A model generated the notes under the pieces. It was not told the origin of the DNA, did not search any database, and was given only the letters and a program-made list of their open reading frames with translations. A DNA stretch of 64,000 nucleotides from a virus. Of this stretch, positions 1 to 64,000 are shown in pieces. The position numbers and the translations under genes are program-made. The DNA lies in IMG/VR virus record IMGVR_UViG_3300033121_002012, positions 2,069 through 66,068 of that record; one strand, given 5' to 3'. The first letter of the stretch is position 1. Each line of letters starts with the position of its first letter.

Positions 1-1594
1 TTTCCGCTGGTGCGTCCAGCGCTGAGTAGCAGTAGAGCGCCGCCGGGCCGCAAGCCGGATCATGGCAGCCGCCCACCGGCGTCACCACCACGGCGCTGTC
101 ATCAAGAATGGGTACATGGGTCGGGTTGGTATAGCACGCCCCATCGTATTTAACGGTATGCGCATAAACCGCCGAGTACACGGTGTCGGGACTCGTTACC
201 GGGGTCGGCAACGGATTAGGCACCGGCGAAACGACCACGGCGGTTTCATCCACGGTAAAGTCGATCACCAGCCCCGTTTCACTGAACTGGTAGTCCGCAA
301 GATCAACGTCCAGTTCACCCACCTTCAACAACGTGCTGTCTTCGTTAACGTACTGCGTAGCCGTGATCGGCACGGCGTAGTCCGTGGAAAGCAAACCACC
401 CGCCCGCCAGATTTTGACGTTTACAACTGAGTCCTGAATAACCGCACCGTCCGTCAGGTAGATGCCCAGTTTGCCGCGCACCCGGTTGATCCGGTTCCCG
501 ATCACCGGTTTGGAGTTTTTGAAAGTCAGCAGCGACAGGCAGCAAGGACGGACGGTTTCAATGGCCGCCAGCGCCTTGGCCTCCAGTTCCGGCTGATTGG
601 GCGCTTCGTAGCGGGCGTAGAGGTTGCTGTCAGTGTAGTACAGACCGCTGTAACCGGGCACCGGGTGAGGCGCACCGCTGGTACTCAAGGTCATCAGCGG
701 CACCGAAGTCACCCCGTCGGTTGTATACGACACCGTGCTGCCGCTGTTACCCAGCCGGTTGAGGGTGGTGTAGACATCCGTATCAACCGACAACTGGGTA
801 AAGATCGCCGCCCAGCGCCGGGTGCGCCGCCCTTCCCCGCCCGGATAGTTGGAGTAGGCACAGCGCTCGTAACTGTAGACACCACCGGGCAGCACCCGGT
901 AACACTTGATGCGAACGCGGGTGTTGAAGCTGTTATAGGCGCTCCCGTTGACTCTAAAGAAATCCGCTGACAACCGAAGGCGTTGGTCGAAGGGAGCCGG
1001 AATCATCGTCGGCATGTAACCGTAATCGTAGCCAATGTTCTCTCCGGTCAGCCCGCCGCCAAGGCCGTTCAAACACCAGTTTCCTTTTTTGGTGCGCACC
1101 ACCACTTCGTCTTGCACGGTGGTCGTGGCCGGATCGAGGTCAAACATCCAGTGCGTCGTGCCCGGCAGCAGAATAATGTCCTCGGTGGCGCTGGCCAAAG
1201 GATAGGGCAAGCTGGTGGCTGTGCCTGCCGCCCCGGTGATGTTCTGAGTGAAGACGGCTCCCAGATAAACCGCTGTGCCTCCGTATTCAGGCACAGGCAA
1301 GGTGTGTCGAACGTTGATGGAACCGGTGATGAAAGCGGTGCTGTCGAAAGCCAGTTGATTACCGTCCCGACAATAAGCAGTGCCCCGCAGGCGATAGAGG
1401 CCACTCTGGGTGCCGACATAGTTCAACACCGCGCCTTCGCCGTTGAAAACCGCCGTGCCGTTGCGCAGCAGTGACCAGATGATGCGACTCGGCGCATTGC
1501 CCCGGCTATCCTGCGCCACGATTACGGCCTGCAAGTTTTCTCCTACGGAGAAAACGAGCTTGCTCCAGTTTACGCCTGCTTCTAGCTCAGCCAC
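1..1594 (-). CDS. Large putative virion/tail protein, truncated at window start (not in the ORF track)
   Basis: Manual translation from GTG at 1594 (MAELEAGVNWSKLVFSVGENLQ...) stays open to base 1; beta-rich, Cys-containing toward the C-terminus; preceded by the late motif GTAGTTA (1599-1605). Confidence 0.75.
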   Translation of the reverse strand, partial: MAELEAGVNWSKLVFSVGENLQAVIVAQDSRGNAPSRIIWSLLRNGTAVFNGEGAVLNYVGTQSGLYRLRGTAYCRDGNQLAFDSTAFITGSINVRHTLPVPEYGGTAVYLGAVFTQNITGAAGTATSLPYPLASATEDIILLPGTTHWMFDLDPATTTVQDEVVVRTKKGNWCLNGLGGGLTGENIGYDYGYMPTMIPAPFDQRLRLSADFFRVNGSAYNSFNTRVRIKCYRVLPGGVYSYERCAYSNYPGGEGRRTRRWAAIFTQLSVDTDVYTTLNRLGNSGSTVSYTTDGVTSVPLMTLSTSGAPHPVPGYSGLYYTDSNLYARYEAPNQPELEAKALAAIETVRPCCLSLLTFKNSKPVIGNRINRVRGKLGIYLTDGAVIQDSVVNVKIWRAGGLLSTDYAVPITATQYVNEDSTLLKVGELDVDLADYQFSETGLVIDFTVDETAVVVSPVPNPLPTPVTSPDTVYSAVYAHTVKYDGACYTNPTHVPILDDSAVVVTPVGGCHDPACGPAALYCYSALDAPAE

Positions 1595-1597
1595 GCC

Positions 1598-1804
1598 TTA
1601 ACTACTGACGAAACCTTCCCACCAGCGTCCGGTGCCCGGTTTTGGGTTGTAAGCCGCCGCCAACCAGACCGAACCCACCCAGCGCTGGCGGCAACCGCAC
1701 TCTGGGCATTCCCGGCGAATCAAGCCTCGCGGGGTCACTTGCGCCTTACCCCAAATGAACTGGCCCCCGCAGGGAGTACCATCAGGCTTGTTGTGCGTCG
1801 ACAC
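1598..1804 (-). CDS. Small Zn-ribbon-like hypothetical protein
   Basis: C-terminal part of ORF 1598..1900 from a GTG near 1804 (STHNKPDGTPCGG...RECPECGC); fills the gap between GroES and the next gene. Confidence 0.4.
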   Translation of the reverse strand: MSTHNKPDGTPCGGQFIWGKAQVTPRGLIRRECPECGCRQRWVGSVWLAAAYNPKPGTGRWWEGFVSS

Positions 1805-2432
1805 CTTCCGGGGCTTCCACCACGCCATCAATCCATGCCTGATGCGTGTAGCAAAATTCTTCATTCTCGGTGGTACCGTCAAGCTTCTGCCGGACGACAA
1901 ACAGTGGCGTTAACCGGCCAAAGTTTACAACCAGTTCGTCACCGACATTGAATTCCGCCGTGACGGTGGTGCCCTTCTTGGCGCAGCGAAAGTAAATGAA
2001 ATCCGGGGCCGATTGGCGCACCGCGCTATCCGGCAAAAACAAGGTGCTACCTGCCTCCTGCCGGATGAAATGCTTGAGCAGCACATACTCACCCAGCATC
2101 TCCATGTTATCCACGTTGATGTCGTCGCCGTTGATCCGGGCCAGCAGTTCACTTTGCAGCAGGTTCATGTAATGCTTGCCGTCCAGCACAAACTTCTGCG
2201 TGGCGAGCATCATGTCGTTGCTTTGAAACAGCACCAGATCGCCTTCCTTGACCAGCGCAGGCACCGGCTCATCCTTCCCTTTGACGCGGCCATCACCGAT
2301 GCAGCGCACCACCCCCATGCGGTGGGTATCCCGCTGCTGGGCGGCGTCAGGAATGATAATTTTGCGGGAGGCGTCCGCCTTGGGACGGTGGAATTCAACC
2401 AGACAGCGAGGGCCAAAGAGTTTTACGTTCAT
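1782..2432 (-). CDS. groES: Co-chaperonin with two tandem GroES/Cpn10-like domains
   Basis: N-half: KLFGPRCLVE...IIIPDAAQ...GVVRCIGDG...VKEGDLVLF...DGKHYMNLLQSELLA. Second half repeats the pattern (MLGEYVLLK...LFLPDSA...VGDELV). GGAGG upstream. Confidence 0.85.
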   Translation of the reverse strand: MNVKLFGPRCLVEFHRPKADASRKIIIPDAAQQRDTHRMGVVRCIGDGRVKGKDEPVPALVKEGDLVLFQSNDMMLATQKFVLDGKHYMNLLQSELLARINGDDINVDNMEMLGEYVLLKHFIRQEAGSTLFLPDSAVRQSAPDFIYFRCAKKGTTVTAEFNVGDELVVNFGRLTPLFVVRQKLDGTTENEEFCYTHQAWIDGVVEAPEGVDAQQA

Positions 2433-3514
2433 TACCTCCTAAGAACCGGCTTTATGGTTTTCGTGTTCAGATCAAATTCCCGGCTGGCCAGTCCCTTCTC
2501 CGTTTCCAACAGATGGGCATTGGCACTATTTGATGTATACAACTTTCGATTCTGGATCGCGACAATGGCCGCCTCCACGTCATCGTTGGGATCGAGCTTC
2601 TTGTTATCGGCCCGCAAAGGCATCTCGGCCACGGTCACCCTTACCTTGTTTCCCAGCAGACCGACGCTGCGCCACATCTCTCCGATGGCGTCACGATCAA
2701 ACAGCAAACAGAACTCCTTGACCCCTTTGCACCGCAGCAGCTTGATCGCCTGTACCTGACTCAAATGATGCTTGAAGATGCAGACCGGCACGATGTGCGT
2801 CCAGCCCAGTTCCCGCAACTTCCAACGCAGGGACAGGACGTTGAGAATGGATTCCACCAGCACCACCGTTTCCGGTGTACCGGTGCGTACCGCGTTGATG
2901 TTGTAAACCCAATAACCCGCACCCCACTTAACCCGGCTGCGATGCGGAAAACGTTTGGTGGATTCACCCGGAATATCTTCGTAGGTGCGCCCTTGGTAGT
3001 AAACGCACAGGTTGTATTCGTACACGGGAAAGATCGCGTAGCGTTCCCACAGCGGATCGTCCGGGCTGTAGCCCACGCCCGCTTCCACCATATCCTGATA
3101 CTCCAGATGTTTTCGTTTGGCCATCTGGGTGATGAGCTTCGTGTAGATGCTTTTGGGCGTGCGGGCAATCGGAATGAAACCCTTGGGCAGATCAACTTCC
3201 TGAAGCACCGGCACCGCCGACGCTGGAGCCTCTGGCTTGTAGAGCAGTTCACCAACCGGCACGCTGCTGTAATCATCTGCTGTAAGCTCGTAGCCCAATG
3301 CCCGTGCCCATGCGACGAAATTGCCTTTGTTATGCTTGCCCTTGCCGCAGCGCCAGCAAAAGGTCTTTCCGGTTTTAAGGTTGATTGCCCGGTTCCCGCT
3401 TCGATCCCCGCATTCCGGCTCCGGGCAGACGAACACCAGTTCATCATTGGTACACTTCTCCGCCACCACCTTGAAGATGTGTTCGATTTCTCGTCGCAAA
3501 AGCGGCCCGATCAT
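2432..3514 (-). CDS. DNA primase (Zn-binding domain + TOPRIM)
   Basis: CPEPEC...CWRC zinc finger, YYQGR, VLVESILN and LLFDRD TOPRIM motifs; start moved to ATG 3514, downstream of a GTTCT element. Confidence 0.85.
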   Translation of the reverse strand: MIGPLLRREIEHIFKVVAEKCTNDELVFVCPEPECGDRSGNRAINLKTGKTFCWRCGKGKHNKGNFVAWARALGYELTADDYSSVPVGELLYKPEAPASAVPVLQEVDLPKGFIPIARTPKSIYTKLITQMAKRKHLEYQDMVEAGVGYSPDDPLWERYAIFPVYEYNLCVYYQGRTYEDIPGESTKRFPHRSRVKWGAGYWVYNINAVRTGTPETVVLVESILNVLSLRWKLRELGWTHIVPVCIFKHHLSQVQAIKLLRCKGVKEFCLLFDRDAIGEMWRSVGLLGNKVRVTVAEMPLRADNKKLDPNDDVEAAIVAIQNRKLYTSNSANAHLLETEKGLASREFDLNTKTIKPVLRR

Positions 3515-3732
3515 TGTAGCTATAGAACTGTGAGCGATCTGAATACCTTCATCAACACCGCGCAGCAATTTACTGCCCCGCCGGACGCGATCCCGGTGAC
3601 TGACCACAGCCAGCAAATGAGCGTCGCAATGGAACTGGCCAGCCGGGCAGCCAACCGGCCCCCGGAACCGCCCGCGCCGCCCCCGATGGTGCCGATCATC
3701 GCGGTGGCCAACTGAATGCAGTTCTTGGTTGC

Positions 3733-4311
3733 GTGCTGAGCAAGTTCGACTGGGTTACCCTGCCGCCGGTTACCGCCATCATGGTGTTTGACCGTCCGCA
3801 GCAGTTTACTGCCGCCCGTGCCAGTGTGGAAAACTTCTTCGCCCAGAACTGGCCCTACAAAGAGTTGATTGTATACAACACCACGCAGCACTCCCTCTTT
3901 CCGGTCTGGCGTGAATGGCTGGCCAACTTTCCCCTGTGTTCCGCCCGGCGCAGTTTGGAACTCCGGCTCCGCCCACTGCCCCTGCCGGACATCCTGAAAC
4001 TTTGCGTCGCCAACAGCAATGGCGAGTGGTGCCTGATCTGGTCGCCAGACTGCTGGTACCATCCCGACTACATCAAATTCCACATGGAACACCGGGACAA
4101 GCAGCGCCTCGTCACCCTGCGGCGCAAGCAGGTGTTCGCGCTGACCGACCGCACACTGGCCACGGTGCTCGATGATACGATTCCCTGCTGGAGCTTTTAC
4201 CGGCATGTCCCGGTCAATTTCGCGGAACCGCTGCCCCATCAGTTCACCGGGGTCGTCACCTTGGACAACCCGGCTGGCCTCCTAATCAAATTTGCCCGTG
4301 AACTCGTTTGA
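3733..4311 (+). CDS. Glycosyltransferase family 2-like (degenerate DxD)
   Basis: PPVTAIM...VENFFAQNWPYKELIVYN...NGEWCLIWSPDCWYHPDYI fits a GT-A fold; SPD replaces DDD. Confidence 0.65.
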   Translation: MLSKFDWVTLPPVTAIMVFDRPQQFTAARASVENFFAQNWPYKELIVYNTTQHSLFPVWREWLANFPLCSARRSLELRLRPLPLPDILKLCVANSNGEWCLIWSPDCWYHPDYIKFHMEHRDKQRLVTLRRKQVFALTDRTLATVLDDTIPCWSFYRHVPVNFAEPLPHQFTGVVTLDNPAGLLIKFARELV

Positions 4312-5956
4312 TCTTTTAACCCACCGCCTGCGTCCCGAACACTTTGATCCTTTTTCAAAGACGGACGCGCTGTTGGTACCCCACCAGCGTCAGGGAGTCT
4401 TCTTTCACAGCGGCGACTTCGGCGACATCATCTACGCGTTGCCAACCATCCGGGCCTTGGGTGGCGGCCATCTTGTGATCGGCCCCAGTCCCCTCTGGAA
4501 AACCCGTCTTCAGATGACCGCAGAGCACGTGGAACTGCTGCGCTCCCTCTTGGAACTCCAACCCTACATCCAGAGCGTAAGATTTTCCGAGACTACGCCA
4601 GATAACGTGGACTTCGATCTGAACCGTTTTCGCGAGTATCTGGTCATGGAACCGGAACTGATGAAAAACGGCCAACGCCGGTTCAATCTGGCCGAAGCCC
4701 ACCTGTATACATTCAAGATGCCCCTTGCCGAGTGCCGGTCTTCTTGGTTGACCGTCGACCGGGTGGAAACCATCGCCGGGCGGCCCGTGTTAATTCACCG
4801 GAGCGCCCGCTGGCGAAATGCTGCCTTTCCGTGGGACAAGATCATGGAGCGCTATGCCGCGTACGCTGTCTTTGTTGGTCTGGAGAGTGAGTACGAAGAC
4901 TTCATCTCTGAATGGGGTCGCCTGCCCTTTCGACCTACCAGCACCTTCCTCGGGCTGGCCCGCCTGATCGCCGGATGTGATCTTTATATCGGCAACCAAT
5001 CGCTGCCCTACGCCCTGTGCGAAGGGCTGAAACAGCGCAGCATTCTCGAAGTCTGGACGGAAGGAGCCAACTGCCAGTTCGAGCGCAAAAACGCGTTCTA
5101 TGGAGATGGCCGACTATTGTTCGTGCCAAAACTGGACGATTTGAATATGAACGAACACGCTGTGTCGTGTCCCTTGTGCGGACAGGCGGCACCCAACACC
5201 GAAGCCACGGTCACTTGCGAATGCGGCATGGTCTACGCCCGCGTGCGCGGCAACAACCACCAGTACTACCAGCATTACGCGGATGACCATTCACACATGC
5301 GTTTGCCCAAGACCGTGGATGAAATCAGAACCAGTGGCCTGCGCCGGGAAGCCTTGGTGCAGGAGTTGAGCATCCGCATTCCGCCGGGAACCTTGCTGGA
5401 TGTCGGCTGCGGCTGGGGTGCCTTTCTGGCCTGTGCGCGAGAGCGCGGCTTCACTGTTTATGGCGTCGACATCTGCCACAAAGCGGCCAACTTTTCCGCC
5501 AGCGTCCTCGGCATTCCAACGCTGTGCGATGAACTGGTTGATTGCGCTTTCGCGCCGGACACCTTCAATGCCATCGGTTTCAATCACACACTGGAACGGC
5601 TACCGGACGCGGAAGCCGCTTTATGTTTTGCGCACCGGATCATGAAACCCGGCGGCCTGCTGTTCGGGCTGACGCCCAACATTCGTTCCTTCGCCGCAAA
5701 GCAAATGGGAGCCGACTGGCCTTGGCTCGACAGCGAGCACAATTATCTGCACTTCGCACCCGACACGTTGACCAAACTGCTGGAAAAGTGTGGTTTCAAC
5801 ACCATCGAATACTTCAGCCGCGTCGGTGACTTTGATCTCAATGCTCTGCGGGCCTTGATCGTCAAGAGCACTCCCGCTGAAGACGTGGAAGTCACATTGA
5901 ACGACCTCAATGTCCGTGGTTACGGAGAAGAACTGCTGTTCTTCGCCCGCAAATGA
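4292..5956 (+). CDS. GT9 (heptosyltransferase-like) domain fused to class I SAM methyltransferase
   Basis: HSGDFGDIIYALP and LIAGCDLYIGNQSLPYA (GT-B/GT9); CPLCG...CECG; LLDVGCGWGAFL...HTLERLPD...KPGG (Methyltransf_23-like). Confidence 0.8.
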   Translation: MPVNSFDLLTHRLRPEHFDPFSKTDALLVPHQRQGVFFHSGDFGDIIYALPTIRALGGGHLVIGPSPLWKTRLQMTAEHVELLRSLLELQPYIQSVRFSETTPDNVDFDLNRFREYLVMEPELMKNGQRRFNLAEAHLYTFKMPLAECRSSWLTVDRVETIAGRPVLIHRSARWRNAAFPWDKIMERYAAYAVFVGLESEYEDFISEWGRLPFRPTSTFLGLARLIAGCDLYIGNQSLPYALCEGLKQRSILEVWTEGANCQFERKNAFYGDGRLLFVPKLDDLNMNEHAVSCPLCGQAAPNTEATVTCECGMVYARVRGNNHQYYQHYADDHSHMRLPKTVDEIRTSGLRREALVQELSIRIPPGTLLDVGCGWGAFLACARERGFTVYGVDICHKAANFSASVLGIPTLCDELVDCAFAPDTFNAIGFNHTLERLPDAEAALCFAHRIMKPGGLLFGLTPNIRSFAAKQMGADWPWLDSEHNYLHFAPDTLTKLLEKCGFNTIEYFSRVGDFDLNALRALIVKSTPAEDVEVTLNDLNVRGYGEELLFFARK

Positions 5957-6591
5957 GTAACATCCTCATCATCGTCAGCACGTTCAATCGCCGCGATCTC
6001 ACCGGGATTACACTGGACGCCATCAAGCACAATCGGTCGGCCTATTCTGACGTGGTGGTGCTGGACGATGCCAGCACCGAGTATGATGCCGCGTGGTTGG
6101 CCCGCTGGGGCTTCACCGTACGCACCCGGACTACCTCGCTCGGTGTAGGCGGCGCGGCCCGAATGCGCTACCTGAACTTTCTGGCGTCCCCGGCTCACTA
6201 TCGCTACTGCTGCATGTTGGACAACGACCTGTTGCTTTGTCCGCGCTTCGATCTCCGCCTGTTGGAACTCTGGAACCGTACACAGGGACAGCATACCCCG
6301 TTGACCGTGGTTACCGGTTATCGCTCCGTCACTCAACGGGTAAAACGCGCCCACTCCGACTGGCTGGAGATGGACACGGTAGGCGGTGCCTGCCACTTCG
6401 TTGACCGGCACACGGCACTGCGAGCCGTCATGGCCATGCCGTCGGAACCGTGGGAACACGCATGGGATTTTCGGATTTCACGTGTGTACCAGCAAGTTAT
6501 TGCGCCGGTACGCTCCTTCATCCAGCATCTCGGAATTCACGGCAGCGGTGTCAACGGTATTTCCAGTGACGTAGCTTTTGATTATGACTAA
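5953..6591 (+). CDS. Glycosyltransferase family 2
   Basis: IIVSTFNR, VVVLDDAS, MLDND, IQHLG motifs. Confidence 0.8.
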   Translation: MSNILIIVSTFNRRDLTGITLDAIKHNRSAYSDVVVLDDASTEYDAAWLARWGFTVRTRTTSLGVGGAARMRYLNFLASPAHYRYCCMLDNDLLLCPRFDLRLLELWNRTQGQHTPLTVVTGYRSVTQRVKRAHSDWLEMDTVGGACHFVDRHTALRAVMAMPSEPWEHAWDFRISRVYQQVIAPVRSFIQHLGIHGSGVNGISSDVAFDYD

Positions 6592-7324
6592 AACCCTCAC
6601 ACTTATCACCATGTCGCAGGGCAATACACAGGCATTGCGACGCACCTTTGAAAGCTACGCTCCCCATTGTCAGCAGATTGTATACGGCGACGTGTTACTG
6701 TTTGAAGATGATCGCGAAGCGGTGCGGGCCATGCAGAAAGACTTCCCGCTGGAAATCGTGGCTTTCCCTTTCAACTTCATCTTCCTGCATGGTTTCAGCG
6801 CCATCCTGAACGCACTGGCGTACCACGCCAAAACCGACTACGTGACCTACGCCAATTGCAGTGAAATCATCGACCCTAATTTTCCCATTCAACTGAACCT
6901 GCTGGATGATGACGCATTCAACTGCTTCTTTTTCCGGCACGCGGTGGAACAGCATCGCTGGGTGCGCACCTACAACCCACGGGAACTGCGCTGGAGCGGC
7001 ATGATCCATGAGGAAGTCGACGGCGAACGCCGCATGTGCCCATCGGAGATTTTCTACATGGCTGACACGGAAAAGGACACCGCTGACCCTTTCAAGGCCC
7101 GTGTCTGCGATGACGTGAAAGAAATGGTCTACTTCGAGCAGCTTGACCGCCTACGCAGACACCCGGAAATGCTGGGGCGCACCAGTCAAGGCTGGCTGGA
7201 CTACACCAACGCGCAGGGCCTTTACTACGAAAGTAAACAGCGGGAACGGGGCCGCCGGTTTGACGCCTTTCTCAACAGTGATCTGGCCCTGTATCTGGCT
7301 CAGGCATCCCTTGATTTCAAATGA
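6584..7324 (+). CDS. Glycosyltransferase family 2-like
   Basis: GT-A-like N-terminus, FSAILNAL...AKTDY, and RWSGMIHEEV (vHE motif of WaaE-like GT2s). Confidence 0.6.
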   Translation: MTKTLTLITMSQGNTQALRRTFESYAPHCQQIVYGDVLLFEDDREAVRAMQKDFPLEIVAFPFNFIFLHGFSAILNALAYHAKTDYVTYANCSEIIDPNFPIQLNLLDDDAFNCFFFRHAVEQHRWVRTYNPRELRWSGMIHEEVDGERRMCPSEIFYMADTEKDTADPFKARVCDDVKEMVYFEQLDRLRRHPEMLGRTSQGWLDYTNAQGLYYESKQRERGRRFDAFLNSDLALYLAQASLDFK

Positions 7325-8334
7325 ACGTCTACACTGTCATTATCCCCCACTATCGCAACGGGCGCATGACCGCCTATTGCCTTTCCCAGTTGCTCAAGCA
7401 CGACGGCTGGCGCATGAACATCATTGTTGTAAACAACAGCCCAGAGAATGATCCCAGCCTGCGCTATCTGGAACCCTTTCGTTCCCGCGTCACCTTTTTG
7501 CAATATCCCACCTACTGGATACAATCCCACGGCGCAGCTTTTGATTTTGCGCTGCCCCACGTCACGACGACCTACTTCATCACCTTGGAGTCCGATAGCT
7601 TCCCCACCGAATCCGGCTGGTTAAACTATTACGACAAGCTGGTCGCGGAAGGTTTCCACGCTGCCGGTTCCGTACTGAGCCTGTCAGGCGGCACCTATTT
7701 GCACCCCGCTGGCGCACTGTATCGCCGCGATGTCTGCGAAAAGGCCAGTGCCGTCTGCCGGTACCATCCCTACGCCTACGTGCCCAACATCTCACAACGG
7801 GACGGCTTTGATTACCACCTGATGGTTCATTACCGGATTTTGGACGCTTTCTGCCGCTGTCCTGATGCTTTTCACGTAACGGTTGCGCCCCGCTACACCG
7901 ACGAAGCCAGTATCCGCCGGGCCATCGTGAACTACCGCCCTTTAACCGGCCTGTTTCACAACGGCTGCGGTAACAAGGATGACAGCCTGTTCACCTATTC
8001 TCAACGGAACTTTGAGAGCGAACCGCCTAACCTCGTGCTCACGGAAAAGGCCGACCTCATTCATCGCGTCGGCTATGAACCGGGTCAGTTTCTCGCCTAC
8101 TGGCTGCACGCCCAAGGCCGACCTGTTTTCTACGTGACCACGGAAACCAAATGGCTGCCTAACCGGGAAAATCAGCAGCAGGAATTTACCCTCACCGAGT
8201 TCGGACTGAAGCATCTCTGGGGTATGACCGCGTACGATGGTTGCGCGGCCCCGGAGCACCGGGATATTGTGGAATTCAAACGCCAGCAGCTTGACGAGCT
8301 TTATGGCTCACTCCCTGCCGGAGACAGAAGATAG
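7321..8334 (+). CDS. Glycosyltransferase family 2
   Basis: TVIIPHY, IIVVNNS, SHGAAFD, FITLESDSFP. Confidence 0.7.
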   Translation: MNVYTVIIPHYRNGRMTAYCLSQLLKHDGWRMNIIVVNNSPENDPSLRYLEPFRSRVTFLQYPTYWIQSHGAAFDFALPHVTTTYFITLESDSFPTESGWLNYYDKLVAEGFHAAGSVLSLSGGTYLHPAGALYRRDVCEKASAVCRYHPYAYVPNISQRDGFDYHLMVHYRILDAFCRCPDAFHVTVAPRYTDEASIRRAIVNYRPLTGLFHNGCGNKDDSLFTYSQRNFESEPPNLVLTEKADLIHRVGYEPGQFLAYWLHAQGRPVFYVTTETKWLPNRENQQQEFTLTEFGLKHLWGMTAYDGCAAPEHRDIVEFKRQQLDELYGSLPAGDRR

Positions 8335-8921
8335 TTTTGGTAAATCCGCACGTTTCTGTTTACAACCGCGTAGAGGGCGAGATTTTTTCGCGCCATGAGA
8401 TCGTCCAACGCCGCGAAGCTGAAAATAATTGCGTGGCCCAGCAGTGGATCGACGTAACCATCCTCCACGGTGACAAAATCAGCAAACGATGTCTCAATGT
8501 ATACAAACCCTCCCGTCTTCAGCGCGGTGCGAACCTGATCCAATTCCTGAAAGGGCTGATGCAGATGCTCCACCACTTCCACCATGCTCACGCAGTCAAA
8601 ATGTTCTGCGGGCATACAGTGGTACCCAAAGGCGTAGCGGTCGTAACCCTGTGCCTGCATTCCAGCGGCGAGCGCTGCCTCCACCAGCAAACCACGGCCA
8701 CAACCGAAATCCAGCAGGGAACGGCAGCCAAGGGATTGAATCACCTGTAAGCGCACCGGATTCTGGTCGTTGCGATCCAGCAGCCCGCTGCCGCCTACCA
8801 TGTTGGCTTGCGCCAGCGGAGCCGTGTAGATGGTTCGGCAGCGAGCGCACACATGATAGGGCACACCAGCCTTGAACTTGACGGGATCGTTACTGGTGCT
8901 GCACAGCGGACAGTTCATCAC
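8301..8921 (-). CDS. Class I SAM-dependent methyltransferase
   Basis: CPLC...CARC N-terminus; LLDFGCGRG; FDCVSMVEVVEHL...LKTGG. Confidence 0.85.
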   Translation of the reverse strand: MMNCPLCSTSNDPVKFKAGVPYHVCARCRTIYTAPLAQANMVGGSGLLDRNDQNPVRLQVIQSLGCRSLLDFGCGRGLLVEAALAAGMQAQGYDRYAFGYHCMPAEHFDCVSMVEVVEHLHQPFQELDQVRTALKTGGFVYIETSFADFVTVEDGYVDPLLGHAIIFSFAALDDLMARKNLALYAVVNRNVRIYQNYLLSPAGSEP

Positions 8922-8936
8922 GCTGTAAGAACCGGA

Positions 8937-10079
8937 TTAAACCCGGAGCAATTGCAGTCCTGAAATGGAACCGACCACGCGTAATGTGATGTAGCCGCCC
9001 GCTGGCACCGTCAGTGTGTATTTGACGTAGTTCTGCCCCTCGACGTAGGTGGTGGCCACGGTCGGGTTGTTGGACAGCACGGTTGGCGCAGCCAAATTGA
9101 CCGAGACGTAGAAATCCGTGGGGTCGTTGTTGGCGTAGAGATAAAGTTCGTAGTCACTGGCGACCAGATTGTGCAGCCGGAACGTGTTTTCGTACGGCAC
9201 CGGCCCCACATAACCCCCGATCCATGTTTGCAGCAGCGTGCTCCAGCTTGCCCCGGAACTGGCCGCCGAAAACAGGGGCGCAATCCGCTCCAACACCACC
9301 GGACTCCGCGTGTTGTCGTAACCGTTCAAGGGCAGCACCGGGTCTTCGGAAAAATAGTAAAAACCGCTCGCGTAACAGGCTGACGTGGCGGTCGCCGTGT
9401 AGTCCACCGGTGTATACACGTTCCAGTAATCGCTGGGCGTATAGCCTGCGGCAGCGCCGCCAACCACGCTGCCGCTGCCGTTGAACGAGATGTTTACCAG
9501 CAATGGCGCAGGAGTTGTCAGCTTGAAATAATTCAATCCGCTGTTCCACAGAGCCACGACTCCGGCGCTCAGGTCACGCACCAGTCGATCTGGCGCAAAG
9601 CGAATCTTGCCGCCCTGTCCGATGACCGTAACCCCGTTTTGCGCCACCCAGTAGCGCCCGAGCAGGGCGGGATTAAGCGTCTTGCGGCTGACCTCGATGT
9701 TGAAGAACATCTGCGCGGTCAGGAGATCACCCAGCTTAGCGCCCCGTTGCACGGTCTGGCCGACCTGTACACTGACCACGCTGAGGCCGCCAACTGTTGT
9801 AGTCACACCCCAGCCGTGGTCAATGACCACATGCGCCACGGCTGTCCGGGCAAGCTGAGAGTCACTATTGCGCCACGCTGGCGTAGTCCGGTATATCTGG
9901 GCTACCGCACCGGTGCCTGCGGCAACCGCTGCTGTTTCCCCGGCTTCCATTTCCACTGTGAGGCCAGAAACAGGATAGCTCACCGAGGCGGGTGAGTAAG
10001 GAAACAACACGTTAGCTGACCGGGCAAACGGCGGTTTCAGTTTGGACAAAACAGCGAGCGTGTCAGTGGATAGATTCAT
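8937..10079 (-). CDS. Putative virion protein with degenerate M23/LytM domain and beta-rich C-terminal domain
   Basis: VVIDHGWGVTTTVGGLSVVSVQVGQTVQRGAKLG...MFFNIEV...LNP matches the LytM scaffold without the Zn ligands; coupled to the tube-like gene upstream. Confidence 0.6.
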   Translation of the reverse strand: MNLSTDTLAVLSKLKPPFARSANVLFPYSPASVSYPVSGLTVEMEAGETAAVAAGTGAVAQIYRTTPAWRNSDSQLARTAVAHVVIDHGWGVTTTVGGLSVVSVQVGQTVQRGAKLGDLLTAQMFFNIEVSRKTLNPALLGRYWVAQNGVTVIGQGGKIRFAPDRLVRDLSAGVVALWNSGLNYFKLTTPAPLLVNISFNGSGSVVGGAAAGYTPSDYWNVYTPVDYTATATSACYASGFYYFSEDPVLPLNGYDNTRSPVVLERIAPLFSAASSGASWSTLLQTWIGGYVGPVPYENTFRLHNLVASDYELYLYANNDPTDFYVSVNLAAPTVLSNNPTVATTYVEGQNYVKYTLTVPAGGYITLRVVGSISGLQLLRV

Positions 10080-10936: not shown

Positions 10937-10957
10937 CGCACTGTAACTACCTTAGAG

Positions 10958-11938: not shown

Positions 11939-11941
11939 CGC

Positions 11942-13368: not shown

Positions 13369-13444
13369 GCTGGCGCTGGCCGTGGCTCCGGTATCATCGC
13401 GGCATCTGTATGTGCGAGATTAACGACATCCTGAATTCGATCAA

Positions 13445-14616: not shown

Positions 14617-14637
14617 ACGCTCTAACTACACGGTTGA

Positions 14638-15593: not shown

Positions 15594-15596
15594 GCA

Positions 15597-16220: not shown

Positions 16221-16225
16221 AAGTC

Positions 16226-18514: not shown

Positions 18515-18517
18515 AAA

Positions 18518-53658: not shown

Positions 53659-54030
53659 ATGGCTGACCCCTTACCCGCCCAATCTCCGGCTCCCAACGTG
53701 ATCGCACCGGAAAAAGCCATGACCCGGTTTGAAGCCCAGCGCAAACTCGGCCTCTTTGCACCCCACGATTACGTCATGCTGTCCTTGATCGTGTTGATCT
53801 GGGTGACGCTGGGATTCTGGAAACTGTTCGGCACCCCGACCGCGTTGCAACTGGTGGCACTGGGACTTGTAAACATTGTGCTGACCCAGTTCTGGATGAT
53901 CGTCTTGGTTTATCGCTGCATGGTGTTCACGCTTGATCTCCACGCAGATGTCGCCCTGATGCCGGAAGCAGCGGCCCGGATCGTGGTCGGTTACTGGGAA
54001 GGCCGCCGCGCTACTCCCACTCCAAAATGA
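53659..54030 (+). CDS. Two-TM membrane protein
   Basis: Two hydrophobic segments; holin-like size but no adjacent endolysin. Confidence 0.55.
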   Translation: MADPLPAQSPAPNVIAPEKAMTRFEAQRKLGLFAPHDYVMLSLIVLIWVTLGFWKLFGTPTALQLVALGLVNIVLTQFWMIVLVYRCMVFTLDLHADVALMPEAAARIVVGYWEGRRATPTPK

Positions 54031-54323
54031 ACAACTTTACCCGCAACAAACTCGCGCACGACCTGCATCAACGGCTGGCCATCCCAGTGGATCGCGCCAA
54101 AGGCATCGTCGATCAAACCTTGGATGCGCTCAGCAACGCCTTAGCCGAAGGCAAAAAAGTGGAATTTCGTGGCTTCGGTATCTTCGAGGTCGTGCAGCGC
54201 AAACCCAAGGTGGGCCGTAATCCCCGCCACCCGGAAGCGGGTCAATACCAGATTCCCGCCCGGCGGATGGTGCGCTTTCGCATCGGCAAACAGTTGTTCG
54301 CGCTGCTCAATCCTAATGAATAG
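54027..54323 (+). CDS. HU/IHF-family DNA-binding protein
   Basis: VEFRGFGIFEVVQRKPKVGRNP...IPARRMVRFRIGK. Confidence 0.92.
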   Translation: MNNFTRNKLAHDLHQRLAIPVDRAKGIVDQTLDALSNALAEGKKVEFRGFGIFEVVQRKPKVGRNPRHPEAGQYQIPARRMVRFRIGKQLFALLNPNE

Positions 54324-54344: not shown

Positions 54345-54974
54345 ATGACTGCCGCGCCTACACGCTCCGACCTCGCCAATGATGCCCAACGCGGCAGTCA
54401 TTGCGGGTGCAGCGCCTTGTTCGGCATCATCTACTGTGATCCAGCATGGTCTTACAAAGACAAGTGCCATGCCGGGGAACGTGGTGCGGGCTACAAATAC
54501 ACGACGACCAGCACGGAAGAAATGGCGCAACTGCCAGTCATCAAAATCGCCGCGAAAGACTGTGCGCTGTTCATGTGGGCAACGATGCCGATGCTGCCTG
54601 ACGCTCTCGCGCTGATGAAGTCATGGGGCTTCCAATACAAGACCGCCGCCTTCGTGTGGGTCAAGAGCAACAAAAAATCTGACACTGACTTCTTCGGTAT
54701 GGGCAACTGGACTCGCGCCAACGCGGAAATCTGCCTGCTCGGAATCCGAGGAAAACCAAAACGGGTGTCTGCCGCCGTTCGGCAGGTAATCCGTCGCCCG
54801 ATAATGCGCCATAGCGAGAAGCCGCCAGAAGTGCGGGAACGCATCGTGACGCTGATGGGTGACATCCCCCGCGTGGAGCTATTCGCTCGCGTGAAAACCG
54901 AAGGCTGGTCGGTGTGGGGCAACGAAGTAACCAGCGACGTGTCAATGATGCCGAACGACCCGGATCAGCGATGA
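54345..54974 (+). CDS. MT-A70 family N6-adenine methyltransferase
   Basis: IIYCDPAWSY, LFMWAT, WGFQYKT, GMGNWTRANAEICL, HSEKP, VELFAR, WGNE. Confidence 0.9.
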   Translation: MTAAPTRSDLANDAQRGSHCGCSALFGIIYCDPAWSYKDKCHAGERGAGYKYTTTSTEEMAQLPVIKIAAKDCALFMWATMPMLPDALALMKSWGFQYKTAAFVWVKSNKKSDTDFFGMGNWTRANAEICLLGIRGKPKRVSAAVRQVIRRPIMRHSEKPPEVRERIVTLMGDIPRVELFARVKTEGWSVWGNEVTSDVSMMPNDPDQR

Positions 54975-55368: not shown

Positions 55369-55604
55369 ACACCAAAACGTTTCCTGACCGCAGTATTGAA
55401 AGCTGCAAGATCGCTTTCCGTGGGAGCGCACACGTCGTGATAAGAAACAATCCCGGTGCCTTTCTCATTTTGCACATGGCAGACAAGGCCCTTCCAGCCA
55501 TCGTGGCGCATCCGGTTATTTGCACGTGAAATCGACCGGCAGCGCAAAACCTGTCCGGTCGATTTTAGTTTAACCCAGCAGGGTGCTTTGAACTTTGTGT
55601 TCAT
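55365..55604 (-). CDS. Hypothetical protein
   Basis: ORF coupled to the upstream gene. Confidence 0.45.
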   Translation of the reverse strand: MNTKFKAPCWVKLKSTGQVLRCRSISRANNRMRHDGWKGLVCHVQNEKGTGIVSYHDVCAPTESDLAAFNTAVRKRFGV

Positions 55605-57037
55605 GCGCCAACTTCAGCCGCCTGCTTGGCAGCTTCGGCAGCCACAAAATCATCCTGCTTGGAGGCACCCCAATTCAATCCGAACTTACCGGCACACACC
55701 GGGCCGTAGCCCACGTCGGTTGAGCGGTCATCCGTCAAATTGCGACCGCAGAAGCAGCAGCGACCCGTCAGCTTGCCGTACTTCGCCGCCACCGTCTCTG
55801 GGTCAGCCGCAAACTGGAGCAACTGACGCTCAACCGTCGGCGGACATTCCCGCACCGGGAAGAAACGACCTTCCGGTGTGATCTTGCCGTAGTAGCGGTC
55901 GCCGCTCTTGACGTAAATGCTGCCTGCGTTTTTGGAAGCCGCCCCCGCCAAGGAGAGATGCAGATGGCTGCTGGCGTCATCCGCCAGCCGGATGGCCGGG
56001 TGCTTCAGCTTGGACTCGGTGGCCGCTGTAAACATTGCGAAGATGCGAGGCATACCGTTGACGTTCAACTGCGCAATCTTGGGCTGCGGCAGGGAACGGC
56101 GGTAGGCTTCAATGATGTAGGCGGCGATGCCGCAGAGCCGGGGTTCAATGGCTTCGGCGCGGGCGCAGGCGAGCAGGTTATGCTCAAAGTCACCCAGCGT
56201 GCGGTTCGCGGATTTGAAGCTGGTGATTACCATGTCGCGGATGGCGTCAGCAGTCATGTCTTCCGGGTCAGCCAAGACCGGACTGTACTTTCGGAGCACC
56301 CACTGCCGGGCCTCGTAAGCCAGCGCGGTCGCTTCCGGGGTGATTTCGTAGGGCTGTCCCAAAACTCCGTTCATTGCCATCTGCGCCTTGTCCGACGTGG
56401 AGTTGCCGTGACCCGCTGCCGAAACCATCTTGCGCGTAATGTAGCGCCCGTCTTTCAGCACCACTGCCGCCACATGGCCCAAGAAGGTGTCGAGATCAAT
56501 CCGGTAAATGTGCCGGACGTTGGCGCTGCCTTTCAGCCATTCAATGCGGGTGGCGGCGCTGCAAACATCAAAAGCGTTGAACAGGTGCTCGGACGCCTTG
56601 GTCATCTGGTGCGGCGACGTGCCGAGAAAATCTTCAAGGCAGGAGGAACCGACCTGCATGACGCGGCCATCGCGTGTGTGCTGAACGATGTAGGTGTCGT
56701 TGCGCATCCGGTTGGTCTTGCAGTGGGAACAATAAGCCGGAGCATCCCGGTATTCGGCAGGCACCGTATAACCGGGCTTGGAGCGCGTGATGTTACCTTC
56801 TTCCGTGTGAACAATGGTGGCGACAAATTCCCAGCCGTTGCAGGTAGGCGTATCGCCGGTGACTTCGAGATTGATGTAGCGGACAAGCTTGGTGGCATCC
56901 GTGGCACTGGGATGATCCACGTGACCGGTGATGGTGAAGGTGACCGGCTTGGCCCCGATCCGCAGGAGCTTGGCGTTGAGGCGGGTCAGTTTCTCCGTCA
57001 GGGTTTTGAAATTGGCTTCGTAGATTTCGTAATTCAT
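55601..57037 (-). CDS. Early protein with C-terminal DUF6011-like Zn finger
   Basis: CSHC...VGSSCL; C-terminal CCFCGRNLTD..S..VGYGPVCA; start ATG 57037. Confidence 0.7.
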   Translation of the reverse strand: MNYEIYEANFKTLTEKLTRLNAKLLRIGAKPVTFTITGHVDHPSATDATKLVRYINLEVTGDTPTCNGWEFVATIVHTEEGNITRSKPGYTVPAEYRDAPAYCSHCKTNRMRNDTYIVQHTRDGRVMQVGSSCLEDFLGTSPHQMTKASEHLFNAFDVCSAATRIEWLKGSANVRHIYRIDLDTFLGHVAAVVLKDGRYITRKMVSAAGHGNSTSDKAQMAMNGVLGQPYEITPEATALAYEARQWVLRKYSPVLADPEDMTADAIRDMVITSFKSANRTLGDFEHNLLACARAEAIEPRLCGIAAYIIEAYRRSLPQPKIAQLNVNGMPRIFAMFTAATESKLKHPAIRLADDASSHLHLSLAGAASKNAGSIYVKSGDRYYGKITPEGRFFPVRECPPTVERQLLQFAADPETVAAKYGKLTGRCCFCGRNLTDDRSTDVGYGPVCAGKFGLNWGASKQDDFVAAEAAKQAAEVGA

Positions 57038-57043
57038 AACGGC

Positions 57044-57086
57044 ACTGTAAACAAACGTGACTATGCTGTCAACATTATATTTTAAT
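57044..57086 (-). promoter_or_regulatory. Sigma70-like early promoter
   Basis: Minus strand TTGACA-17nt-TACAGT with AT-rich UP; ATG 6 nt downstream. Confidence 0.75.
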
Positions 57087-57165
57087 GGGGCGCAGTTTGT
57101 GGGACAATCCAAGTGGGTGTGCCTGATTATCAACGCCTTAAACTACCTCCCTCCAGCAGCCTATT

Positions 57166-59955: not shown

Positions 59956-60522
59956 TCAGGCCCATAACCGTTTCAACCATTCAAAATTAGACTGCGTAGC
60001 CGAACCCAGCAGCACGTAACGGCTGGTCGCCCGCTTCAACACCACGCCTTCGTAGATCGGCAAATTCCGCGACCGGCGCAGCAACCACGCCAGCGACGGC
60101 GTTTCAAACATCCACGGGTGCTTCAGAAATTTCACCAAGTCCTTGGCCAGCGCCACCCGCTCATGAACCTCGGTCAACAGCAGGCTGTTGCCGTTGCAGG
60201 CCAGCAACTCGAAGGGATAAAAATTACCTTTGAACACTTCTCCGTCAAAGCAGGTGTGATTTGGCAGGCGCAGAAAATCCTGACCGTTTTTGACCTTGCA
60301 GCGGTAACGACTGCCGTGCCGGTTTTGCACAAAGACGTGCTTGTCCACCACCGCCAATCCCGCCCGATCACCGCCCAGCTTGGGCTGCATTGACCAGAGC
60401 TTCTGTTCCACGGCTTCGTGCCAAAGCTGGCGGATATGCTCAGGCCGACCCAGCCGCCGACCGTGCCGGGGGCGCATGGGGTAGAAGGGCATCGCCAGCC
60501 CGGTGCAGATTTCAATTTTCAC
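59956..60522 (-). CDS. Minimal ATP-dependent ligase-like nucleotidyltransferase
   Basis: QPKLGGDR (motif I variant), NRHG, FDGEV, FELL, EGVVLK, WLK; no OB domain. Confidence 0.7.
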   Translation of the reverse strand: MKIEICTGLAMPFYPMRPRHGRRLGRPEHIRQLWHEAVEQKLWSMQPKLGGDRAGLAVVDKHVFVQNRHGSRYRCKVKNGQDFLRLPNHTCFDGEVFKGNFYPFELLACNGNSLLLTEVHERVALAKDLVKFLKHPWMFETPSLAWLLRRSRNLPIYEGVVLKRATSRYVLLGSATQSNFEWLKRLWA

Positions 60523-60530
60523 AGTAAGCT

Positions 60531-60559
60531 ACTGTATACAATCCAGTAGCTACCGTCAA
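60531..60559 (-). promoter_or_regulatory. Sigma70-like early promoter
   Basis: TTGACG-17nt-TACAGT; GTG 8 nt downstream. Confidence 0.7.
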
Positions 60560-60568
60560 CATCAATCT

Positions 60569-62811: not shown

Positions 62812-62884
62812 TCCCGGCAAGATAGTGCGGTTGTAGACGCAATGCAACAACTATTTGTCTACGTCTACAACCGCGTCAATGCGA

Positions 62885-63445
62885 TTAGCCAAGGCGCAGG
62901 AAAGGCCGCCAGTCCGGGTGCTTGGGCTGGATCAACCGCACCATCGGCACTTCCTTCGGAGCCTCCGGCTGGCGGATCAGCCGCCAGCCGAGTTCAGCCA
63001 GCGACTTGTCGGCCTTCTTGGCGTTAACCGCCTTGGCCGTCCAGACCGTGTTCGTGAAGGTATCGCGGCCACCCCGGCTCCGGGCCAGCACGTGGTCGAC
63101 GTTACCGTCCGGGGCAGGCTTGCCGGTGATCTGGCAAATGCCGCCGTCCCGCTGCTTGATGGCCCGCTTGCTCCACTTGGGCCGCCGCTTCGGCATCTCC
63201 GCGTACTTGGACTTGCAGATGACCGTTGGCACGCGCACGGCAAAGCGGATGGCATGGATCAGCCGATCACCCTCGCGGATGGGCAGCGTGAGCCATTCCT
63301 CCCAAGTGACCGGGCGCATGTTCTCCGTGTCGATGCCGGTACAGGCACCACGGCACATGTCACAGAGGGCGGTCTGTACATCCGTTTCCTCGTAACCCTG
63401 CCACTGCTTGTTTACAACAAGCACCTTTGCCTTGAGCAGTTCCAT
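62885..63445 (-). CDS. HNH endonuclease (McrA-like)
   Basis: VLVVNKQW..., RDGGICQITG, NVDHVLARSRGG...N...N. Confidence 0.85.
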   Translation of the reverse strand: MELLKAKVLVVNKQWQGYEETDVQTALCDMCRGACTGIDTENMRPVTWEEWLTLPIREGDRLIHAIRFAVRVPTVICKSKYAEMPKRRPKWSKRAIKQRDGGICQITGKPAPDGNVDHVLARSRGGRDTFTNTVWTAKAVNAKKADKSLAELGWRLIRQPEAPKEVPMVRLIQPKHPDWRPFLRLG

Positions 63446-63494
63446 AAAGTGATACTGGGATGGGTGTTTGTTCTTGTAAAGTGTTCTTAGGTGC

Positions 63495-64000
63495 GTGCGC
63501 CGACGCAACCGAAAACGAGCCAAAAAGGCCCCTGCTGCCCGCTCCAAAGCGGAGAAGTGCGTCACCAAGTACTGCCGTAACCGCAAGGCCCTCAAGCGCA
63601 CCAGCTACAAGGCGGCCACCGGCCAGATAATTGTATACGAACACTTCTTGGAACACTGTTGGAAATGTCACTCCCGGCGATTAAAGGAAACGCGCCCGTG
63701 GACTTACGTGCTAAACATGCTCCGACACAGCGCCCGCAAGCGCAACCTGCCCTTCACCCTGACGGTGGCCTCCTTCAAGGAGTGGTGCCAGCAGACCGGG
63801 TATCTGGAAAAACGGGGCAACAAGCCGGGTGACCTGACCGTGGATCGGATCAACGAGAACGAAGGTTACCACATCTGGAACTTGCAGGTCTTGACCCACG
63901 CCGAAAACAGCGCTCAAGGAGCCGACAACACACCCCGCGCCGAGCGCGGAACCGAAACTGCGGACACCTACGAGCCACCGGAAACTGAAGCTGCTGCTGC
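63495..64000 (+). CDS. HNH-like endonuclease-domain protein, truncated at window end (not in the ORF track)
   Basis: Manual translation: ...SARKRNLPFTLT...TVDRINENEGYHIWNLQVLTHAEN; GTTCT 7 nt upstream of GTG. Confidence 0.7.
   Translation, partial: MRRRNRKRAKKAPAARSKAEKCVTKYCRNRKALKRTSYKAATGQIIVYEHFLEHCWKCHSRRLKETRPWTYVLNMLRHSARKRNLPFTLTVASFKEWCQQTGYLEKRGNKPGDLTVDRINENEGYHIWNLQVLTHAENSAQGADNTPRAERGTETADTYEPPETEAAA

Follow-up and report, generated by a model that had tools for sequence, protein, structure and literature searches.

Iterated words that span a whole genome at a density under selection are uncommon, and most of them lack an explanation. Among the closest described systems are the stoperators of cluster A mycobacteriophages, in which one word occurs at the early lytic promoter and at more than 20 sites dispersed over the genome, approximately one per 2 kb (PMC9283540). 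As characterized there, stoperators are asymmetric words of 13 nucleotides (nt) that are bound by a monomer, lie in short intergenic spaces and keep one orientation relative to transcription in temperate phages (PMC9283540), and their specificity is described as evolving between relatives (PMC9283540; PMC6550527). A second system is HIP1 (GCGATCGC) of cyanobacteria, which is reported to be 15-300-fold over-represented, to be conserved within open reading frames (ORFs) and to be recognized by two methylases (PMC5861425, PMC13756078); one account credits it with no accepted function after 20 years of study (PMC5861425). The Burkholderia orphan methylase M.BceJIV, described as a dimer and as an epigenetic regulator at promoters, recognizes GTWWAC, a word for which a low density of about one per 8 kb is given in that genus (PMC11380664). 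In this study, we analysed a near-palindromic octamer, TGTATACA, and its close variants in IMG/VR virus record IMGVR_UViG_3300033121_002012. The window is a stretch of 64 kb of this 66,068-bp record (labelled G000; CheckV completeness 29%) and, judged by its gene content and its relatives, is a piece of an uncultured T4-like jumbo phage. The octamer is written into the coding sequence of this phage and of several of its relatives, and it also forms part of their early promoters.

The window contains 37 exact core copies of the word. The palindrome TGTATACA, which has no strand, accounts for 15 of these (2534, 3870, 4704, 8498, 9411, 13774, 15057, 19028, 19861, 26211, 29951, 34682, 40216, 42732 and 60533), TGTAAACA on the plus strand for 12 (7428, 23555, 27261, 33212, 36230, 41769, 51896, 52461, 53868, 56027, 57046 and 61704) and TGTTTACA, which is TGTAAACA on the minus strand, for ten (8357, 12728, 24733, 35120, 40267, 49910, 50384, 57675, 58859 and 63409). 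A first-pass annotation made from the letters alone had listed the same 37 positions by eye, and all of them are exact. Variants that differ at the centre add four copies of TGTAGACA (769, 874, 22723 and 53206) and two of TGTCTACA (21752 and 39784), and variants that differ at one end add eight of TGTATACG (722, 6679, 12608, 20891, 25582, 44588, 45440 and 63632) and five of CGTATACA (18473, 19762, 22866, 24704 and 32181). The family thus comprises 56 sites in 64 kb, approximately one per 1.1 kb, which agrees with the earlier estimate of about one site per kilobase once variants are included. Core sites that have a strand are divided into 12 plus and ten minus, so that no strand skew is present. 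Gene coordinates are taken from our own rough calls (66 genes), by which 30 of the 39 core sites of the 66-kb record lie inside genes and 70-80% of copies are intragenic. Examples are the TGTATACA site at 2534-2541 inside gene 2432-3616 (minus), the TGTAAACA site at 7428-7435 (plus) inside gene 7321-8334 (plus) and the TGTTTACA site at 8357-8364 (minus) inside gene 8301-8921 (minus); the first two are examples of what we call orphans, sites with no conserved partner on either side. The heavy use of the uncommon codon GTA that had been pointed out at these sites is borne out, as 132 of 1493 valine codons are GTA and 29 of those 132 lie in the motif in frame. The GC content assumed at that stage, 58-60%, was slightly too high, the measured value for the window being 57.55%.

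The excess of the word is large by several measures. Under an order-3 Markov model, 1.64 occurrences of TGTATACA are expected on both strands and 30 are seen, which makes it the most over-represented 8-mer; because the word is palindromic, these 30 strand counts represent 15 sites. Two codon-preserving shuffles, each performed 300 times on the whole 66-kb contig with its 66 gene calls, gave 11.8 ± 1.5 core sites (simple synonymous shuffle) and 14.8 ± 2.1 core sites (dinucleotide-preserving third-position shuffle) against 39 observed, and both means include nine immovable core sites that lie outside called genes. Counted within genes of G000, TGTATACA occurs 14 times against 0.6-0.8 in the shuffles and TGTAAACA/TGTTTACA 16 times against 2.0-2.4. 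A family member occupies 45 of the 150 positions (30%) at which the amino-acid sequence would permit one, and 28 of the 30 GTATAC hexamers in the window are flanked by a pyrimidine (Y) before and a purine (R) after, which reveals a specificity of eight letters. One-mismatch neighbours of the word are neither depleted nor enriched. The word is therefore a real DNA-level signal that is written into coding sequence through synonymous codon choice, as the first-pass annotation had proposed, and the excess persists under the synonymous-codon shuffle that had been suggested as a check. For Markov models, of which the high-order ones were the other suggested check, the order-3 excess stands, but an order-5 model expects 23.7 against the 30 observed and a maximal-order model likewise absorbs most of the excess. 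This 'explanation' is circular, since the 6-mers on which the order-5 model is trained stem almost wholly from copies of the motif.

IMG/VR holds a clade of uncultured relatives of this phage, with capsid identities of 59-96% and contigs of up to 238 kb. The relatives referred to most often are G001 (96% capsid identity, 211 kb, 93% complete), G002 (90%, 199 kb), G003 (81%, 238 kb), G004 (74%, 223 kb) and G005 (66%, 230 kb, with terminal repeats); judged from the near-complete members, the whole phage would be about 200-240 kb. TGTAAACA or TGTATACA is the top or a near-top 8-mer in G000-G005. Eight relatives were analysed whole, and six of them (G001, G002, G003, G007, G008 and G010) show the intragenic excess, as does G000; genic TGTATACA numbers 25 against 3.1-3.2 in shuffles of G001 and 18 against 1.6 in G002. 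Compatible positions are used at 24% in G001 and 22.5% in G002 and at 3.4-3.5% in G004 and G005.

A specificity rule was derived from the genic counts relative to the shuffle means. Positions G2, T3, A6 and C7 do not vary, and enrichment is highest for the perfect palindrome TGTATACA; a single change is tolerated, from T5 to A or G in the centre or from T1 to C at one of the ends. One-end variants occur in genes 11 times against 2.0 expected, and centre variants show a weak excess in G000 (4 versus 1.3) and a strong one in G001 (31 versus 6.3) and G008 (19 versus 2.2). The double deviation CGTATACG is found 0 times against 0.8 in G000 and 10 times against 5.2 in G001, an excess that is weak at most, and the double deviation TGTTAACA 0 times against 0.4. 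The purine-first, pyrimidine-last control RGTATACY (0 versus 1.3) and YGTTAACR (2 versus 3.3) are not enriched. Every family member can be written as YGT[A/T/C]TACA in one orientation, so that TACA is always kept. The first-pass annotation had taken the motif to be asymmetric on the grounds that TGTTAACA was not seen; its absence from the window is confirmed (0 copies), but the motif is better described as a palindrome in which one central or one terminal base may deviate. Such a one-deviation rule resembles an energy threshold and suggests a site of the kind typical of a dimer.

The preferred spelling differs between members of the clade. YGTATACR is favoured in G002 (54 versus 9.0) and G007 (31 versus 4.2), YGTAAACR in G010 (58 versus 11.0) and G003 (56 versus 18.8) and YGTAGACR in G008 (63 versus 18.8), and GTAGAC is enriched in both G001 and G008; G000 and G001 contain a mixture of spellings, and the palindromic form is confined to clade members with a capsid identity of at least 88%. 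In each genome the preferred variant is in keeping with the restriction sites that the genome avoids, and this avoidance is extreme and extends across the window, G001-G003, G007, G008 and G010. The 66-kb record lacks 25 six-bp palindromes completely, each of them expected 8-74 times, including GCCGGC (0 versus 73.5), CGGCCG, CCGCGG, CAGCTG, GGCGCC, GGATCC and TGATCA; G005 has no GTAC against 400 expected and G010 no GTCGAC against 37. Avoidance on this scale would mean that the DNA is unmodified and exposed to many type II systems. G003 has eight GTAC against 485 expected and no GTATAC, GTAGAC/GTCTAC or GTCGAC, words that we take to be those of AccI (GTMKAC); its genome nevertheless holds 239 GTAAAC/GTTTAC against 87 expected, and its genes hold 25 TGTAAACA against 2.8. 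The simplest reading would be that the function tolerates several central bases and that each lineage keeps the spellings that the restriction enzymes of its host spare. As a cause of the excess, restriction avoidance was rejected: a shuffle that never creates the 25 avoided palindromes yields a mean of 2.68 genic core sites and a maximum of six (40 shuffles), against 30 seen. Avoidance of TGTACA was likewise rejected as a cause, as TGTACA is not avoided (10 versus 10.6).

It is very improbable that the word has no function and arises as a side effect of codon-pair bias, context-dependent mutation or the palindrome avoidance itself. The complete loss of 25 palindromes does distort word statistics, high-order Markov models do absorb most of the excess and conservation of the sites at the nucleotide level is not clearly above control, but the excess survives both the dinucleotide-preserving and the avoidance-respecting shuffles, is specific to eight letters, spends a rare codon and leaves one-mismatch neighbours unchanged. 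The word is also absent from the genes of G004 and G005 despite their similar composition, G003 keeps only the spelling that its restriction avoidance allows, and homologous positions are occupied together in G000 and G001 more often than independence would give.

This shared occupancy was measured by protein-guided mapping. For seven of the 24 mappable genic sites of G000, G001 carries a family member at exactly the corresponding codons, sometimes as another variant; a family motif is present in G001 at the codons corresponding to 2534, 3870, 19861 and 52461, the site at 12728 corresponds to TGTATACA and that at 57675 to TGTAGACA. The alignment of these last two with different family members indicates that the variants interchange. 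Among positions compatible with the word in both genomes, ten are occupied in both, seven in G000 only, six in G001 only and 26 in neither (odds ratio 6.2, P=0.006); the corresponding tables for G002 and G003 contain numbers too small for use. A family motif is kept in 45 of 119 aligned site-by-relative pairs. Sites are either kept or thoroughly rewritten, and it is mainly their density, rather than fixed positions, that is maintained. The motif is thus shared with related phages, inside genes in six of the eight, and partly at homologous positions.

A signal of this kind could serve, through its density, a transaction of the whole genome such as lagging-strand priming, modulation of a nuclease in the manner of Chi, or packaging and condensation. 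A palindrome would serve both strands of a circularly permuted genome that is replicated from many directions, genes for a T4-type UvsX-type RecA and a 5'-3' exonuclease are present, and positions turn over while density is kept. The sites are spread evenly over all 10-kb bins, over early and late regions, both strands and any gene class, without orientation bias, at a spacing of about 1.1-1.6 kb. This spacing is more regular than random in G002 (coefficient of variation 0.77, P=0.001) and marginally so in G000 (0.80, P=0.05), but is random-like in G001 (0.98). Against such a role, the Chi sites that are known have an asymmetric, G-rich sequence, and the length of known primase sites is 3-5 nt. 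As the presence of the word in early promoters would also be left unexplained, we consider a density signal of this type unlikely.

The promoter copies form a distinct minority. In the subgroup with intragenic sites (G000, G001, G002, G003, G007, G008 and G010), TTGAC lies 13-14 nt upstream of the word at 5-12% of sites in each genome. Of the 328 family sites of G000-G002, 31 hold promoter-oriented instances, 32 in all, that carry tGTTGAC at -19/-20 and ATTAAAA at about -33, and the aligned promoters read attaaaattt..GTTGAC-N14-(T/C)GTATACA-N8-9-ATG, that is TTGACn, a 17-nt spacer and TACAnT. In such promoters (TTGACn-N17-TACAnT) the word would cover positions -16 to -9, its first half lying at -16 to -13; the base at -7, two after the word, is T in 22 of the 32 promoter sites (69%), and 27 of the 32 are TGTATACA or CGTATACA. 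The window contains three promoter sites (32181, 57046 and 60533), each with GTTGAC 14 nt upstream and a start codon 8-10 nt further on, and 53 others; the overlap with -10 boxes that had been claimed at these three positions is therefore correct. The predicted early promoter at 32161-32190 (plus) reads GTTGAC-N14-CGTATACAGT, or TTGACa, a 17-nt spacer and TACAGT, follows AT-rich sequence and precedes gene 32238-33041 (plus). That at 57035-57073 (minus) reads TTGACA-N13-TGTTTACAGT-N6-ATG, with the motif (57046-57053) as its -10 region. The adjoining DUF6011 gene, called at 55601-57133 (minus) from a TTG at 57133 by the longest-ORF rule, likely starts in truth at the ATG at 57037-57035, which at 57037 (minus) follows the TACAGT of this promoter by 6 nt. 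The third, at 60520-60560 (minus), reads GTTGAC-N14-TGTATACAGT-N8-GTG, with the motif (60533-60540) as its -10 region, and lies upstream of gene 59956-60522 (minus).

Copies of the word in G004 and G005 are nearly all intergenic (33 of 38 and 30 of 41, respectively) and are oriented with the downstream gene. The predicted promoters read aaaatagttgcaaataaa-TGTTTACA-N13-TGATATAGT-N5-7-ATG in G004 and tttttTGTTTACAaa-N11-TGGTATATT-N6-ATG in G005, the word being the -35 box in both; a -35 box followed by the pattern TGnTAnnnT is found at 30 of 45 family sites in G004 and 19 of 48 in G005. Each of these two genomes contains approximately 25-30 near-identical early-promoter cassettes of about 50 bp (G004, L047-L058; G005, L070-L081), the mRNAs of which would appear to be leaderless given a start codon 5-7 nt after the -10 box.

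Only a minority of the subgroup sites can be accounted for by promoters: approximately 90% are orphans, which lack a -35 partner and a -7 T and are placed without regard to gene starts. The base at -7 is T in 26% of orphans against a background of 18% (third positions of A-starting codons), the orphans are located anywhere along genes, and no upstream or downstream information surrounds those of G001 or G010. Around orphans, position -2 seems to prefer R and position +9 to prefer Y, but this is mostly codon periodicity and supports no claim to a 12-bp site. Orientation relative to the gene is unbiased in G001 (TGTAAACA, 18 sense and 15 antisense; TGTAGACA, 17 and 14), and in G003 TGTTTACA lies on the sense strand in 17 cases to 8. 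A partner at 17 ± 1 nt together with -7 T, as in a sigma-70 promoter, is present at only about 10% of sites, and placement upstream of genes is promoter-like in G004 and G005 and not in G000, G001 or G002. Orphans are not -10 boxes.

These observations bear on the proposal that the host RNA polymerase holoenzyme itself reads the orphans, as weak promoters independent of a -35 box, as sigma-dependent pauses or as a sink for polymerase, with the early-promoter -10 box or the -35 box TTTACA as their origin. The word does serve as the -10 region in early promoters that look genuine and as the -35 box in those of G004 and G005, all family members keep TACA in one orientation, extended -10 promoters are described as needing no -35 box (PMC2988021), and the orientation in G003 is uneven. 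The missing -7 T, the absence of an orientation bias in G000 or G001, the scatter of orphans anywhere within genes with no concentration at gene ends, the lack of flanking information and the TG of the word, which is one position off the canonical -15/-14 TGn, make direct reading by the polymerase distinctly unlikely.

We tentatively favour, at less than even confidence, that the sites are dispersed binding sites of a putative protein, probably a dimer, that also acts at early promoters. Under this proposal TGTATACA, allowing for a single departure in the central pair or at an end, would be a recognition site on double-stranded DNA for a sequence-specific and probably dimeric protein, and this reader would be a factor acting at early promoters, for example by shutting them off. 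The subgroup would have given the reader hundreds of extra orphan sites inside genes, which could act as genome-wide roadblocks to stray or antisense transcription by the host polymerase, or as a grid on which phage DNA is marked or nucleation begins. We infer, rather than show, that a protein reads the word, that this protein is the same at promoters and at orphans, and what its binding does. The occurrence of one 8-mer in early promoters at different promoter positions would be explained more easily by a dedicated binder than by sigma contacts alone, and its place in the -10 region in the subgroup and in the -35 box in the two most distant relatives would make early promoters the target of such a reader. 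The persistence of TGTAAACA in excess in G003, a genome with few GTAC, was counted in favour of a binder as a function kept under restriction pressure. The codon-level writing, the one-deviation rule, the unbiased orientation, the even distribution over early and late regions and the co-occupancy of homologous positions in G000 and G001 were counted in its favour as well.

The search for the reader began from the candidates of the first-pass annotation, which had named an MT-A70 methyltransferase, HU, an H1-like protein, SbcC and a Mor-like domain; its proposal of a dedicated binding or marking site holds in so far as the word is a real DNA signal, but none of these candidates is supported. 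The MT-A70 adenine methyltransferase gene (54345-54974, plus; Pfam 2.6e-26) is private to G000 among the relatives searched: neither tblastn nor the Pfam profile finds it in G001-G005, and the same profile recovers the G000 copy at 5.9e-28. Its absence from all five excludes it as the shared reader, and it was rejected because G001 and G002 have the same intragenic excess without it. Its relatives in the PDB are METTL3-type enzymes and uninformative on the target. Matches in bacterial and archaeal genomes comprise four loci in metagenome-assembled genomes (Acidobacteria, archaeal, Anaerolineales and Patescibacteria), the best with 73% identity on a 64-kb contig binned to Acidobacteria, and none of the four gives a usable host call. 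HU (54027-54323, plus; Pfam 2.3e-20) is unlikely as a universal reader, and Pfam runs on the window give no family match to a Mor-like, H1-like or SbcC protein.

Closely related to these candidates is the explanation that the word is an epigenetic mark, a counterpart of HIP1 targeted by a host-encoded or lineage-specific methyltransferase or base-modifying enzyme; the density of the word would label phage DNA as self or have a role in the nucleoid or in recombination. An 8-bp palindrome that is hyper-abundant in genes and partly kept in place is reminiscent of HIP1, the rule of an invariant GT..AC, a degenerate centre and Y/R ends resembles type II enzyme specificities, and the spelling preference shifts quickly between close relatives, as target-recognition domains do. 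G000 carries the MT-A70 gene, and an orphan methylase for the overlapping GTWWAC is described in Burkholderia (PMC11380664). However, G001, which is 93% complete, has the full excess without MT-A70, N6_N4 or Dam-type methylases; N6_N4 methylases were found in none of G001-G005, a search that did not extend to C5 methylases and hypermodification enzymes, and Dam-type (D12) methylases only in G003 and G005 of these five. GTWWAC, moreover, includes the unenriched GTTAAC and excludes the GTAGAC that is enriched in G001 and G008, and protection alone would not need many sites. We regard an epigenetic mark as improbable.

Several observations weigh against the dedicated binder that we favour. G004 and G005 show no enrichment of the word inside genes relative to the shuffle, so that a promoter word exists there without orphans, and in the subgroup the two classes need not share a reader, as the orphans of G001 are also heavy in TGTAAACA and TGTAGACA. 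Conservation of individual sites is weak: 21% of 119 alignments retain the site exactly (12.3 ± 5.3% for phase-matched 8-mers), and identity in motif columns is 0.70, compared with 0.67 in flanks and 0.72 ± 0.04 in phase-matched controls. On the conservation check suggested at the outset, occupancy is partly shared whereas column identity is not raised, and maintenance of density rather than of fixed positions fits marking or density signals as well as operators. With regard to the protein, Pfam finds no sequence-specific DNA-binding domain except HU among 70 window proteins, and HU has tblastn matches in G001, G003 and G004 only, being absent from G002 and G005. PHROGs finds no DNA-binding domain in ten conserved small window proteins, and Pfam only RusA, PAS and DUFs in ten of the 13 families common to G001-G003 and absent from G004/G005, the three larger families lying outside that scan. 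Finally, some 'genic' sites fall in miscalled stretches (57046), and the 'intergenic' site at 19028 is actually inside a LAGLIDADG gene.

A broader proposal, possible but doubtful, is that a clade of lytic T4-like jumbo phages has spread an early-promoter word through its genes as a selected 'self' grid comparable to HIP1 or stoperators, with a fast co-evolving reader, a spelling set by host enzymes and no base modification. If true, such a grid would let one phage factor find, silence, organize or protect phage as opposed to host DNA without modifying a base. The clade also offers a small and tractable case, as close relatives spell the word differently and two distant ones have it only in promoters, which provides a natural comparative series for the reader. 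The phage constrains its own coding sequence heavily, with 25 palindromes held at zero and rare codons spent on writing another, which is of relevance to models of phage codon usage and to motif-based prediction of hosts or defences.

Pfam identifies in the window a major capsid protein of gp23 type (36573-38036, minus), a gp21-type prohead protease, a tail sheath, a baseplate hub OB domain, UvsX-type RecA, the 5'-3' exonuclease, HU, MT-A70, a LAGLIDADG endonuclease, GroES and several glycosyl- and methyltransferases. The phage collection searched gave no blastn match to the window and capsid identities below 30%, so that no cultured phage in it is close. All or part of the window is present in runs from ten studies of activated sludge, wastewater and related samples; assembled contigs of four runs over positions 1-20000 display no points at which molecules start or stop, which contigs would not reveal in any case, and RNA contigs are sparse (depth 0-5), so that they give evidence neither way on starts, nicks or transcription at the word. 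A strain of approximately 95% identity (run X16) yields a contig that skips 431 bases at 18516-18948 and has 14 other letters instead; as the skip removes most of the LAGLIDADG ORF (18518-19069, minus, beside the tail-sheath gene), this ORF would be a mobile insertion. G000 and G001 have capsids that are 96% identical, yet their GC contents are 57.6% and 52.4%, 5 points apart, and their shared DNA is only about 70% identical; base composition shifts quickly within the clade. ARAGORN found no tRNA genes in the window or G001, including none for GTA, TAC or AAC codons, and called in G001 (L064:235-652) a tmRNA with a 31-residue tag that may be a false positive. Other words are over-represented too. 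TAGTTA/GTAGTTAA is strongly so in the window (17 versus 3.7 expected), G001, G002 and G007, with 47 copies of GTAGTTA in G001, and is probably a late-promoter word; ACTACACG/CGTGTAGT, for example at 9396-9403, has 12 strand counts in the window against 2.0 in an order-3 Markov model. In G008 (G008:C1:1-4000, L104), a long collagen-like coding repeat (GGC TAC ACC)n encodes (Gly-Tyr-Thr)n with a 9-bp period, 146 of 149 copies lying on one strand and most at one contig end; GGCTACAC, the top word of that genome, is this repeat and was rejected as a second iterated motif.

A literature search for TGTATACA in phage and for iterated palindromes in bacteriophage genomes found nothing comparable, and each of the known systems is matched only in part. 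The sites of G004 and G005 resemble the 'uber' UP/-35/TGn/-10 early promoters described for T4 (PMC2988021), and their near-identical repeated cassettes resemble the PeSL cassettes described for T4-type phages (PMC2839356, PMC4122927), but the approximately 90% of subgroup sites that are orphans set the word apart from T4 early promoters. With the M.BceJIV target as described (PMC11380664), the word shares the cores GTATAC, GTAAAC and GTTTAC; that enzyme, however, accepts GTTAAC and not GTAGAC, and the phage word needs its Y..R flanks. The analogies with stoperators and HIP1 drawn in the first-pass annotation hold for dispersal and for palindromic abundance, respectively, and fail in other respects. 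Like the stoperators of L5 gp71 type, the word stands both at early promoters and at many dispersed sites. In contrast to them, it is an 8-bp near-palindrome without orientation bias, most of its core sites lie inside called genes rather than in intergenic spaces, and it belongs to a T4-like phage in which no lysogeny genes were seen; the 70 window proteins, from only about 29% of the genome, include no stoperator-type helix-turn-helix repressor domain and no integrase. With HIP1 it shares an 8-bp palindrome at about one per kilobase, situated within ORFs in several frames, and perhaps also the retention of sites between genomes that is described for HIP1 (PMC5861425). HIP1, by the published descriptions, is chromosomal, phylum-wide and tied to two orphan methylases, whereas the phage word belongs to a lytic phage clade, stands out as AT-rich against a GC-rich genome, is also used in promoters and has no conserved phage methylase, with no MT-A70, N6_N4 or D12 enzyme in G001 or G002. 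Having neither the asymmetry, orientation and intergenic placement of the stoperators nor, in the proteins searched, a repressor or a conserved cognate methylase, the phage word is a member of neither group, and we file it in the general class of selected genome-wide iterated words to which both can be compared.

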